Shown in pieces: positions 8,843 to 42,377 of a stretch of 64,000 nucleotides of DNA. The notes under the pieces are model-generated. The model was not told where the DNA came from. It did no database searches and worked only from the letters and a program-made list of their open reading frames with translations. Position 1 is the first letter of the stretch. Each line of letters begins with the position of its first letter. This stretch comes from an uncultured Nitrospiraceae bacterium (GTDB lineage: Bacteria > Nitrospirota > Nitrospiria > Nitrospirales > Nitrospiraceae), in NCBI GenBank assembly GCA_963846575.1, contig CAWJWJ010000002.1, forward strand, positions 704,001 to 768,000. The letters are read 5' to 3'. Made by a program: the position numbers and the translations under genes.

Positions 8843-8924
8843 CGGAGCTGACTCCTTTCGGATTCACCCTCCCCTCGGTTCTCTGATCCCGTCTTAATGC
8901 GATCACAACGAAAGGATAGCTCCG
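8843..8924 (+). promoter_or_regulatory. 5'-UTR anti-SD stem sequestering the helicase RBS
   Basis: CGGAGCUG-ac-UCCUUUCG (8843-8860) pairs with CGAAAGGAUAGCUCCG (8909-8924): 16 bp, one GU pair, 2-nt bulge. Confidence 0.6.
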
Positions 8925-10219
8925 TGCAGACGACTGCGTTTACTAGTTTTGACACCCTTGGTGTGTCTGCTACTCTCTTGCGAAATCTGACCAAAGCAGG
9001 TTTTGCCGAACCCACCGCCATTCAAGCTCAAGCCATTCCTCATGCGCTCGCAGGTCGCGACGTCTTGGGCTGCGCGCAGACCGGGACGGGGAAGACCGCC
9101 GCCTTCGTGATCCCGATGTTAGAACGGCTAAGTGGGACGCCGAAAGGCCAGCCTCGCGCGCTCATTCTGGCGCCGACACGTGAGTTGGCGATCCAGATTC
9201 AAGGAACGATTGATACCTTAGGGCGTGATCTCCAACTGTTCGCGACCACGGTCGTGGGCGGAGCGGATATGCAAGCTCAGGTCAGAGGGCTGCGGCAACG
9301 TCCTGACATCATCGTTGCCACTCCGGGACGGTTACTCGATCACATGTGGAACGGTACGATCAGTTTGCTCGCCATGACCATGCTGGTTTTGGACGAGGCT
9401 GATCGGATGTTGGACATGGGATTTTCCCAGCAGATCAATCAAATTTTGGATGCCATGCCGGAAGAGCGTCAGACGTTGCTTTTTTCCGCCACCATGCCGA
9501 CTGATCTCGCCCGCTTGGCACAGGCCAGCGTGAAGGATCCTGTTCGTGTCATGGTTACGAAGTCTGCGACGACCGCAGATGGTGTATCTCAAGCCGTGCA
9601 TCACACCACGCATGACCGCAAGAATGCCCTGTTGATGTCGCTTCTTGAGTCTGAATCCGATACCGTGTTGGTGTTTGCACGGACCAAACACCGGGCGGAC
9701 CGATTGGGCAATATGCTCGACTCGGCCGGGCACCGTGTCGCGGTTCTACATGGTGGGCGTACATTGCCCCAACGCCGAGCGGCACTGGAAGGATTCCGAC
9801 GTGGAACGTTTAGGGTGCTGGTGGCTACGGACATTGCCGCGCGAGGGATTGACGTGGCGAACATCGCCCATGTAATCAACTATGATGTGCCCAATTGTCC
9901 GGAGGATTATGTTCACCGTATCGGAAGAACGGCCAGGATGCGGGCGACCGGTCGAGCGACAACCTTTGTCACTTCCGAGGACCAGGAACAGTTGCGAGCG
10001 ATCGAGCGCTTATTAGGTCAGGCAGTCCCGCGTGCGGACGCGAGTGCCGCCTCGACCAGTGTCGCATCACGACCCGAAGGCCATCTGCCTCGTAACGAAT
10101 CGGAACGGCGGCGCCGTCGCGGGGGATCATCCCAGGGCTGGAGGCAGGCTCCCGAGGCGGGACTGCGCGAGCCGAACGGCGGAATCAAACATGGCAGTGA
10201 TTTGGGGCCGGTGTCTTAA
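8924..10219 (+). CDS. rhlE: DEAD-box ATP-dependent RNA helicase (RhlE-like)
   Basis: Q-motif PTAIQ, AQTGTGKT, PTRELA, TPGRL, DEAD, SAT, ARGID, HRIGRTAR; GTG at 8924 follows AAAGGA. Confidence 0.93.
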   Translation: MQTTAFTSFDTLGVSATLLRNLTKAGFAEPTAIQAQAIPHALAGRDVLGCAQTGTGKTAAFVIPMLERLSGTPKGQPRALILAPTRELAIQIQGTIDTLGRDLQLFATTVVGGADMQAQVRGLRQRPDIIVATPGRLLDHMWNGTISLLAMTMLVLDEADRMLDMGFSQQINQILDAMPEERQTLLFSATMPTDLARLAQASVKDPVRVMVTKSATTADGVSQAVHHTTHDRKNALLMSLLESESDTVLVFARTKHRADRLGNMLDSAGHRVAVLHGGRTLPQRRAALEGFRRGTFRVLVATDIAARGIDVANIAHVINYDVPNCPEDYVHRIGRTARMRATGRATTFVTSEDQEQLRAIERLLGQAVPRADASAASTSVASRPEGHLPRNESERRRRRGGSSQGWRQAPEAGLREPNGGIKHGSDLGPVS

Positions 10220-10250
10220 TTTCTACGATCATATGTTGCAAGGAGGAATG

Positions 10251-10592
10251 ATGGTGAGTGACCAGAAACCGGATGCGCCACGCGCCGTGGCTCAGTGGCT
10301 CAGAATTCCTGACGGGACCATGGTGCAACATCGGTTGGATGGACAGAAGGGACACATCGACGGACTGACCGAGATTGTGACGGGCCCAAGCAGAAACCCG
10401 GATGGCCGGACGCAGTACCGGATTAACGTCGGGAAGGGTGACCGGGTGCTCATTGCGGAAGAAGATCTCTTGATCGTGACGGATGCCGAAGGGTTGGTAA
10501 AGATGGCCAAGGAGAAAGGCGAGTACCGCTCCCTGGTCAACAAGCAATTGCGCGGTGTATTTGGTGAGGACCGGTTCGTAAAGACAGCCTAA
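10251..10592 (+). CDS. small hypothetical protein (possible SH3/KOW-like beta fold)
   Basis: AGGAGG RBS at 10241-10246, ATG at 10248/10251, directly downstream of the helicase. Confidence 0.75.
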   Translation: MVSDQKPDAPRAVAQWLRIPDGTMVQHRLDGQKGHIDGLTEIVTGPSRNPDGRTQYRINVGKGDRVLIAEEDLLIVTDAEGLVKMAKEKGEYRSLVNKQLRGVFGEDRFVKTA

Positions 10593-10621: not shown

Positions 10622-10654
10622 CCCAGGACCCCTGTTAGTACAGGGGCTCCTGGG
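10622..10654. terminator. hairpin between convergent genes, overlapping the stop codon of the 62-aa gene
   Basis: CCCAGGA-CCCCTGT / loop TAGT / ACAGGGG-c-TCCTGGG, 14 bp. Confidence 0.55.
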
Positions 10655-10823
10655 GTCCCCATTGCAATCCTTCCAGATCAGGATCGCTTCCCTCAGAAGT
10701 CGCGGGCCGCATCGGTTTATCAGCCTTACGTTGCACGCGACGGGCTTCCTTCTCCCGCTGTTTAACTTGTTTGGCCTTCTCTCGATCGCGTTTTGCGATG
10801 GTGGTCTTGCCTGCTCGTGCGAT
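10635..10823 (-). CDS. 62-aa small basic protein with a non-canonical ATC start (absent from the ORF track)
   Basis: AGGAGGAGGG-AACC-ATC; translates (M)ARAGKTTIAKRDREKAKQVKQREKEARRVQRKADKPMRPATSEGSDPDLEGLQWGPQEPLY*; an in-frame TAG 5 codons upstream excludes any upstream start. Confidence 0.72.
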   Translation of the reverse strand: MARAGKTTIAKRDREKAKQVKQREKEARRVQRKADKPMRPATSEGSDPDLEGLQWGPQEPLY

Positions 10824-10877
10824 GGTTCCCTCCTCCTATTCGTGTCCCTGAACGGGTAATCGAATAGCCCTGCCTCG

Positions 10878-11159
10878 TTAGGTAGCGGACGGCCGACGGG
10901 TGGTACGAGTCGTAGTGGGGCGCGCGTGGGCTCGCGCAGGGCGCGCCTGAGTCTGTTCTGACCTGGCCCTGGTTTCTGCTCCAAACCCTGAACTTGCCAA
11001 GGCGGTGACCTCGCGGCGGATCTGATCCATCGGAGTCTCCTGGGATTCCAGTGAAGGATCAACGAGTCCCAATTGCGTCCAACGGATTCTCAGCTTTGGG
11101 ACGGCCCGCTTCTTTTTGTGCGCAGGTTTGTTGCCCCTCCAGACGGACGTAATTTTCAT
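10878..11159 (-). CDS. small Arg/Lys-rich hypothetical protein (93 aa)
   Basis: GAAAGGAG RBS then ATG; basic, low-complexity protein; co-oriented with the 62-aa gene. Confidence 0.7.
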   Translation of the reverse strand: MKITSVWRGNKPAHKKKRAVPKLRIRWTQLGLVDPSLESQETPMDQIRREVTALASSGFGAETRARSEQTQARPARAHARPTTTRTTRRPSAT

Positions 11160-11374
11160 CGTACACTCCTTTCGGCGAACAACAGGATGGCGATGTCCAG
11201 GCCATCAAACTGGGTGCAGTAGGGCAGACACAAAATCCCGCCCCATGCGTTGCCCATTCCCTCATTCGATGAGCATGGAATGGGCCGTAGGAGGAACGGA
11301 AAGTAGGGGAACGGTCACGCAGCTATATCGCAGGAACGCGAAGCGTAGCGTTGCTGTAGCTCGTACGGTAAGGT

Positions 11375-41339: not shown

Positions 41340-41558
41340 AAAACAGGCTGTACTTCAAAGTTTCGAAGGCGCGATATCATAACTCGTTCTCATGGAGAGT
41401 TTCATCTGTGAGCGTCGCAGGAGGATCGTCATTCGTGGCGTGGTCGTTGTGCGCCGGGGCCAGCCCTCATGCTCAGAGAGTGACGATGCGAGCGTGGGGT
41501 TGACTCCCAGTGTAGCCGCCGCGTACGGTCTGATCAGACATAAAATACGGCTATTTGC

Positions 41559-41975
41559 ATGCTGACCATCTCCACACACGTGACCATTCCTGACGATGAG
41601 ATCGACATCACCGCCGTTCGTGCTCAGGGGGCAGGCGGGCAACACGTCAACAAAGTGTCCTCAGCGATTCACTTGCGGTTTGATATCGCCGGTTCGTCGC
41701 TGCCGCCCTTCTACAAGGAGCGGCTTATGGCTTTGCGGGACCATCGCGTCACCCGTGAAGGCGTGATTATCATCAAAGCGCAGGATTCACGAAGCCAAGA
41801 GCGCAACCGTTCCCTCGCTCTTGACCGGCTGCGGGAGTTGATTCAGGCGGCAGCGGCACCGCGCACCCCACGTCGTCCCACGAAGCCGACGAAAGGATCA
41901 GCTCAGCGGAGATTACAGAGTAAAACCAAGCGTGCGCGGCTCAAGGCGTTGCGCGGGAAGCTCGCGGAGGATTGA
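41559..41975 (+). CDS. arfB: alternative ribosome-rescue peptidyl-tRNA hydrolase
   Basis: GAGGQHVNK GGQ motif, RSQ..N, basic C-tail RRPTKPT. Confidence 0.93.
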   Translation: MLTISTHVTIPDDEIDITAVRAQGAGGQHVNKVSSAIHLRFDIAGSSLPPFYKERLMALRDHRVTREGVIIIKAQDSRSQERNRSLALDRLRELIQAAAAPRTPRRPTKPTKGSAQRRLQSKTKRARLKALRGKLAED

Positions 41976-41991
41976 AGCATAAGGGTAAAAC

Positions 41992-42027
41992 AAAAAAGAA
42001 GGGGCGCCTCATGCGAGGCGCCCCTTC
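41992..42027 (-). terminator. rho-independent terminator of the RRM gene
   Basis: 13-bp perfect stem GAAGGGGCGCCTC / GAGGCGCCCCTTC, 4-nt loop, U-tract on the minus strand. Confidence 0.85.
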
Positions 42028-42053
42028 AGAGACAAGACGAATCTTGAATCGAC

Positions 42054-42377
42054 TTAGAAGCGGTTGCGGCCGCCGCGGTTTTCGCCGCCGCCAAACCGAC
42101 CACCGCCACCGCCGCCACCGGAACGAGCTTCCTGGGGCTTCGCCTCGTTCACGGTGAGCTGCCGGCCATCCATGTCCGAGCCGTTCAAGGCCGTGATGGC
42201 TGCCTTTGCTTCTTCCGCGGTGGACATTTCGACGAAGCCGAAGCCTCGCGATTGTCCGGTAAACTTGTCCGTGATCACGCGTGCCGACTCAACGGTGCCG
42301 TGGGTCGAAAACAAGTTGCTCAGTTGTGACTCAGTAGCTGCATACGGCAATCCGCCGACGTACAATTTAGTACCCAT
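42054..42377 (-). CDS. RRM (RNP-1) RNA-binding protein with Gly-rich tail
   Basis: KLYVGGL (RNP2), RGFGFVEM (RNP1), GGGGGR tail; AAGGAG RBS. Confidence 0.94.
   Translation of the reverse strand: MGTKLYVGGLPYAATESQLSNLFSTHGTVESARVITDKFTGQSRGFGFVEMSTAEEAKAAITALNGSDMDGRQLTVNEAKPQEARSGGGGGGGRFGGGENRGGRNRF

Follow-up and report, generated by a model that had tools for sequence, protein, structure and literature searches.

IF3 destabilises initiation complexes that form on AUU, AUC and AUA codons, and the start codon of infC, the gene for IF3, serves as a feedback sensor; pcnB is another gene with a non-canonical start of the infC kind. To our knowledge, very few bacterial genes have a documented conserved AUH (AUU, AUC or AUA) start. 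The ccpN gene of Staphylococcus aureus, which starts with AUA, is of the same non-canonical kind. A small protein of this kind has also been published, the 61-aa product of S. aureus cvfC1, whose start is AUU (available text of PMC13009471). Near-cognate starts yield 1-2% of the output of AUG in E. coli, and discrimination by IF3 is temperature-sensitive (both from the accessible part of PMC5499595).

New small ribosomal proteins are still emerging lineage by lineage, with bS24 in 2026 according to the accessible parts of the reports on it. In those parts, bS24/cS24 is described as a basic protein of 55 aa with one helix and a disordered tail, bound beside the anti-Shine-Dalgarno (anti-SD) and co-purifying with bS21 (PMC13640635; bioRxiv 10.64898/2026.07.03.736309; PMC11797042), and the usual position of its gene is behind a co-oriented RRM gene (PMC13640635; bioRxiv 10.64898/2026.07.03.736309). 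The protein is reported in cyanobacteria and algae only, its authors reporting no homologs outside cyanobacteria (accessible part of PMC13640635).

Within the window, a 64,000-nucleotide stretch of the genome of an uncultured Nitrospiraceae bacterium, a gene for a basic small protein lies on the minus strand (10635..10823) and runs for 62 codons from an ATC start codon (10821..10823, at a position aligned across 89 genomes) to a TAA stop (10637-10635). A strong Shine-Dalgarno (SD) sequence, AGGAGGAGGG (10828..10837, minus strand; -12.9 kcal/mol against the 3' end of the 16S rRNA), is separated from the ATC by the bases AACC, and an in-frame TAG (10836..10838, minus strand) overlaps the SD five codons 5' of the start. 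The SD, the ATC, the 62-codon frame, the stop and the upstream TAG had all been claimed in the original prediction, and all were re-read as claimed. The gene is present in a single copy in the genome, and a sigma-70 promoter search found none for it. Its product (7.1 kDa, pI 10.1) carries 15 K/R within residues 1-37 and an acidic tail, in the order of a basic helix followed by DPDLxGxxxGPQ; AlphaFold2 models a single helix at residues 6-35 and then coil, with a mean pLDDT of 70.6 and a pTM of 0.33.

Orthologs of the gene were matched in 49 of the 61 genomes searched. A family-profile search of the phylum matched 80 of 251 genomes, including 44 of the 46 in the bacterium's own family, and found the small gene in 0 of 16 genomes of genus g2 (family f2). 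Over 32 equal-length sequences of the genus, dN/dS in the 62-aa frame is 0.068 and stops are absent; each of the remaining five frames is interrupted by stops in 6-28 of the 32 sequences. Variable third codon positions number 55 in the same set, versus 19 and 15 at the other two positions. By this pattern of constraint the 62-aa frame is a real protein gene, as the original prediction had proposed. One ortholog (G059, L036:107-238) has a premature TGA after 44 codons and loses the conserved tail, by mutation or assembly error. A divergent paralog of the small gene with an ATG start (L048-L057, L080, L100, L103) lies mostly directly behind a paralog of the 115-aa neighbour described below; it was not found in the present genome (G000).

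The stop codon sits at the loop of a hairpin (10622..10654, minus strand) with a 14-bp stem and one bulge, which had been noticed at the outset and is indeed present. Its folding energy is -35 kcal/mol (z -2.98; a stability reached in 2 of 200 shuffles), and in the genus 90% of cells are paired (26 sequences). Covariation amounts to 12 two-sided cells versus 5.9 in shuffled alignments, which comes from only 2 such pairs and is reached by shuffles. Families f3 and f4 showed no such hairpin. The one here lacks a U-tail and drew no call in a terminator search; it is probably a 3'-end or convergent-junction stem. Its conservation in the genus could suggest that the region holds a conserved RNA element and no protein gene; a related doubt is that the start codon is a sequencing error. 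However, the low dN/dS and the excess of variable third positions, the finding of ATC in 72 separate assemblies and the lack of any Rfam match to the gene region make either reading barely credible.

Start codons were tabulated with one ortholog per genome, excluding 13 paralog loci, two duplicates and short-form hits. At the aligned position they are ATC in 72 of 89 genomes, ATG in 12, ATA in 4 and GTG in 1, where the counts are non-independent because related genomes are kin. A conserved AUU/AUC/AUA start behind a strong SD is thus found in 76 of the 89 genomes, and ATG or GTG in 13, which counts against an explanation built on AUC. By family, ATC occurs in 64 of 68 orthologs of the bacterium's own family and in 8 of 8 in family f3, ATA in 4 of 4 in f4, and ATG in 6 of 6 in f2 and 3 of 3 in f5. 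Pairing of the SD with the 16S 3' end averages -12.4 kcal/mol in the ATC orthologs versus -9.3 in the ATG orthologs, and the spacing, tighter than in the ATG orthologs, is 5 in 70 of the 76 ATC/ATA orthologs. The original prediction had allowed that close orthologs might all start with ATG, leaving ATC as a private mutation or an error; since most of these separate assemblies have ATC at the same aligned position, with a strong SD before it, it is no private mutation. The protein tree leaves 23 of 66 inner branches open and, short as it is, does not polarise the ATG/ATC changes. Judged by this recurrence, the AUC is a conserved, selected start in a coding gene, kept behind a strong SD in two families of nitrifier-type bacteria and relatives, with AUA in a third family and ATC again in myxobacteria.

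The original prediction had also held that ORF callers miss the gene. It is absent from the list of ATG/GTG/TTG ORFs, but databases also carry mis-started versions of its relatives. The 59 database homologs, of which the nearest named ones are from Nitrospira and Nitrospiraceae, span 43-108 aa and mostly have spurious N-terminal extensions or start at codon 20, a scatter expected where the true start is unusable by gene callers; the start positions of the Nitrospira entries need correction. Ten homologs of 43 aa begin at codon 20, and a canonical codon lies within 11 codons downstream of the start in 9 of the 76 ATC/ATA orthologs, as if translation began at codon 20 or far upstream and the ATC were an ordinary Ile codon. 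Codon 20, however, is GTG in only 14 of the 32 genus sequences and residues 2-19 are nearly invariant, an upstream in-frame ATG/GTG/TTG is absent from 68 of the 76 ATC/ATA orthologs, and in the ATG orthologs the residue aligned with the ATC is Met. A start elsewhere is therefore very improbable.

Non-canonical starts are not a habit of this genome. A genome-wide scan of the codons at set offsets behind SDs of at least 6 bases gave, per offset, 59-135 ATG, 5-8 ATC and 4-13 of the decoy codon GTC; ATH codons stand at decoy level, and a general ATH start habit was rejected. The ATC scan recovers both the 62-aa gene and infC, and four further candidates without a nearby canonical start seemed internal or weak. 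The infC gene lies away from the window (L199:1222-1725; G000:C1:957377-957883, minus strand) and itself starts with ATC behind an SD, so the precedent invoked by the original prediction occurs in the same genome. Outside family f2, infC starts with ATC in 43 of 44 genomes and with ATT in 1. In all 15 f2 loci (one locus cut) it starts four codons further upstream, at an ATG that has no clear SD; to judge from these starts, the classic feedback of IF3 on infC may be lost in this family. Family f2 is also where the small gene begins with ATG (6/6) or, in genus g2, is not found (0/16). The co-variation of the two starts is a lead only, because it comes from one lineage (f2) and because infC keeps ATC in 7 genomes whose small gene starts with ATG or GTG.

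These features suggest how the start might work. The strong SD at fixed spacing would very probably bring the AUC into the P site, the place taken by AUG in some orthologs. Destabilisation of AUU, AUC and AUA complexes by IF3 would then keep output low and let it rise when IF3 proofreading is weak, as might happen when IF3 per 30S subunit is low, when 30S subunits are immature or possibly in the cold. Immature 30S subunits bypass IF3 proofreading (available text of PMC6868393). An in vitro study of five codons, AUC not being one of them, found that cold and ppGpp put an AUU mRNA at a disadvantage (accessible part of PMC5499595); a stress response might thus run in either direction, which counts against the explanation. 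By analogy with the described AUH starts, output is probably throttled by the AUC and sensitive to IF3.

The same start could instead act as a fixed dimmer: an excess of this basic protein would be harmful, the AUC would do no more than keep its level constantly low, and IF3 would have no regulatory use. Such a role would suit the varied weak codons of the family (ATC, ATA, TTG, GTG) and the weaker SDs of the ATG orthologs, which would be an alternative route to low output; in S. aureus, AUU gives cvfC1 about 10% of the AUG output with no effect of the medium (available text of PMC13009471). A weak SD would, however, be the simpler means of holding output down, and in this gene, as in infC, the weak codon goes together with a very strong SD whose spacing is fixed. 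We regard constant low output as a somewhat unlikely alternative to the IF3-gated start.

Beyond the orthologs, a profile search returned 1195 clusters at E <=0.001, from Nitrospirota, Myxococcota and Acidobacteriota, and at least 571 genome loci were confirmed. The family consensus is a basic helix with a DPD[IL]xG[IL]xPGPQ tail, and K11, R12 and K25 are invariant. A shorter sister form lacks the tail and aligns to the long form at 96.7% probability; a bS21 sequence, used as a composition control, reached 0.6%. Cluster names across the family are all hypothetical or absent. For the 62-aa protein, a Pfam scan gave sub-threshold matches only (DUF7091 at E 0.04) and NCBIfam no match; a PDB sequence search that included ribosomal chains found no match for the family, Foldseek returned 0 matches to the single-helix model, and the ESM Atlas gave hypothetical clusters only, or nothing. 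Phages, plasmids and viral contigs searched held no family match. By these comparisons it is a large, multi-phylum family without a name or a profile.

Automatic start calls in the best 80 of the at least 571 loci, which are from other phyla (mostly Myxococcota and Acidobacteriota), are ATG 45, GTG 23, TTG 10 and ATC 2, and ATG as the commonest start there also counts against the AUC explanation. In 42 myxobacterial loci from the class and the order that surround the two ATC genomes (one is titled Vulgatibacter), starts are ATG 29, GTG 9 and ATC 4, two of the ATC being from the same genomes as in the 80-locus set. Of 79 short-form loci (L263-L342), 45 have TTG, 22 ATG and 5 GTG as the start and 7 are offset, in a sample biased to the query's close relatives; this TTG usage is far above that of the RRM genes adjoining family loci, which start with ATG in 47 of 48 cases.

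The neighbours of the family recur. Counting up to 4 kb, 30 of the best 80 of the at least 571 loci have an RRM gene nearby and 7 a DEAD-box helicase; in 20 the RRM gene is upstream in the same orientation, no more than 900 nt away. In family f3 an RRM gene is directly upstream in 7 of 8 loci. By comparison, the present genome (G000) has 4 RRM genes in 4.2 Mb, which gives any 8-kb window a chance of about 1%. In 27 of the 42 myxobacterial loci a cold-shock gene is directly upstream; for the short form, 14 loci have a cold-shock gene in 7 cases and bS21 in 4, and a cold-shock gene is nearby in 15 of 79 loci. RRM is also a fusion partner. It is carried by 7 of 59 longer hits, six of which (P0308, P0311, P0312, P0314, P0317, P0318; 172-177 aa, 51-66% identical) share one architecture of family domain, linker and C-terminal RRM, in an unnamed family whose N-termini bridge the short and long forms. 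P0315, which resembles a frameshift join, was left out of the six, and a search for short-form fusions, in which 28 of 34 longer hits were read, gave none. The copy in this genome has no RRM or cold-shock neighbour, its nearest RRM gene being about 31 kb away, which counts against a link to an RNA-handling set. Taken together, gene context and RRM fusions point to RNA metabolism for the family.

Two other proteins were noticed around these loci. A GGQ-bearing gene (41553-42374), putatively ArfB-like, adjoins the RRM gene of the window, and similar genes are neighbours in 7 of the 79 metagenome loci of the short form (e.g. L299:1931-2356). An unnamed protein of 125-150 aa (L118:2669-3046; L194:4645-5103), with no Pfam match, turns up repeatedly close to the small gene, with 7 cases in 14 short-form loci and 8 in the best 80 of the at least 571 loci.

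In the window itself, the gene for a 93-aa basic protein precedes the 62-aa gene on the minus strand (10878..11159, ATG start). All 34 genus loci have it (one copy is frameshifted), as do 22 further loci; it was found in the bacterium's own family only and has no Pfam or NCBIfam match. Its leader (11164..11223, minus strand) is conserved at 88-98% column identity over 34 genomes and contains a 6-bp inverted repeat, with a folding z of 0.77 and no Rfam match. Matching words reached at most 0.06 among 24 RNA runs; of four RNA runs placed on the region, which gave contigs from relatives that carry no strand, start or level, two cover both the 93-aa and 62-aa genes (10768-11352 and 10714-11213). 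The 93-aa gene is probably the first gene of a transcript shared with the 62-aa gene. On the plus strand, a conserved hypothetical gene of 115 aa (10245..10592) is convergent with the 62-aa gene, and a DEAD-box RNA helicase (8897..10219, plus strand; Pfam DEAD and Helicase_C; 34 of 34 genus loci) faces it across this ORF. The original prediction had suggested that the helicase, the 93-aa protein and the 62-aa protein may form a ribosome/RNA stress module. The 93-aa gene is real and conserved, and neighbours and RRM fusions tie the family to RNA metabolism; however, the helicase is on the opposite strand and hence not in the same operon, the 93-aa gene was found in one family only, and the partners found across phyla are RRM and cold-shock genes. 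A complex prediction of the 62-aa protein with the helicase core scored 0.00, which is evidence neither way.

Quite likely the product serves RNA metabolism as a member of the RRM/cold-shock/DEAD-box gene set; RNA would be bound by its basic helix and a partner by its conserved acidic DPDLxG..GPQ tail. To judge from its composition and context, the 62-aa protein probably works on RNA or the ribosome. That the RNA target is the 30S subunit, as for cyanobacterial bS24/cS24, is a plausible step that we place just short of an even chance. On that view the gene would encode an accessory translation factor and, alongside infC, would sense the stringency of initiation through its own start codon. The protein might, on the other hand, be a cofactor of RRM/cold-shock mRNA chaperones or of RNA decay, with no ribosome binding. 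RRM fusions, the predominance of RRM and cold-shock genes among the neighbours and the lack of a match to PDB ribosomal chains or to bS21 speak for such a cofactor, but the neighbour varies (RRM, Csp, DEAD helicase, bS21), which fits a shared pathway better than a fixed partner, and bS24 has the same RRM neighbour yet is ribosomal; we consider a chaperone cofactor rather unlikely. For the whole explanation by analogy, an AUC-translated, IF3-gated gene with an accessory RNA- or 30S-binding product, the balance is even. The broadest version, in which the long DPDL-tail form, the short form and the RRM fusions together are an unrecognised multi-phylum accessory small-subunit protein that tunes initiation or SD recognition, with an AUC/AUA/UUG start closing an infC-like feedback wired to cold-shock RNA-chaperone genes, is speculative and on balance improbable. 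If true, it would be a second infC-like circuit on initiation stringency, wired to cold-shock RNA-chaperone genes. Family members in Myxococcales make ribosome association and IF3 gating directly testable.

A conserved AUH start is already known as a kind, and the gene and its family are apparently without a paper: no publication on either was found in a search that was thin on subscription journals, and the accessible part of PMC6627406 does not mention the gene. Like infC, the small gene has a conserved AUH start behind a strong SD, the start of infC being ATC in this genome and most relatives, and it is exceptional within its genome. Unlike infC, it has AUG in 12 of 89 orthologs and GUG in 1, and its product is not IF3 or a known fidelity factor. 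Cold-shock RNA-handling sets (CspA-type CSD proteins, RRM Rbp proteins, DEAD-box helicases, bS21) supply its recurrent neighbours and, with RRM, its fusion partner, but the 62-aa protein has no CSD, RRM or helicase domain by Pfam and is linked to them by gene context. Profile similarity to the one bS21 sequence compared is absent, and there was no PF01165 hit. The best analogue, as an analogy only, appears to be bS24/cS24 (Ssr3189, Asl3888; COG5794, PF30515), with which the modelled protein shares small size, basic character, one N-terminal helix and a disordered tail. The upstream RRM gene of bS24/cS24 is found in relatives (7 of 8 in f3; 20 of the best 80 of the at least 571 loci, in other phyla), and not in this genome; a search of the genes that follow plasmid-borne RRM genes for a cyanobacterial bS24 found none. 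In direct numbering without alignment, the bS24 invariants K9, R14 and N15, as given in the available text, face I9, R14 and E15, so that K9 and N15 are unmatched; the tail is highly conserved in the 62-aa family and, by the same text, not in bS24.
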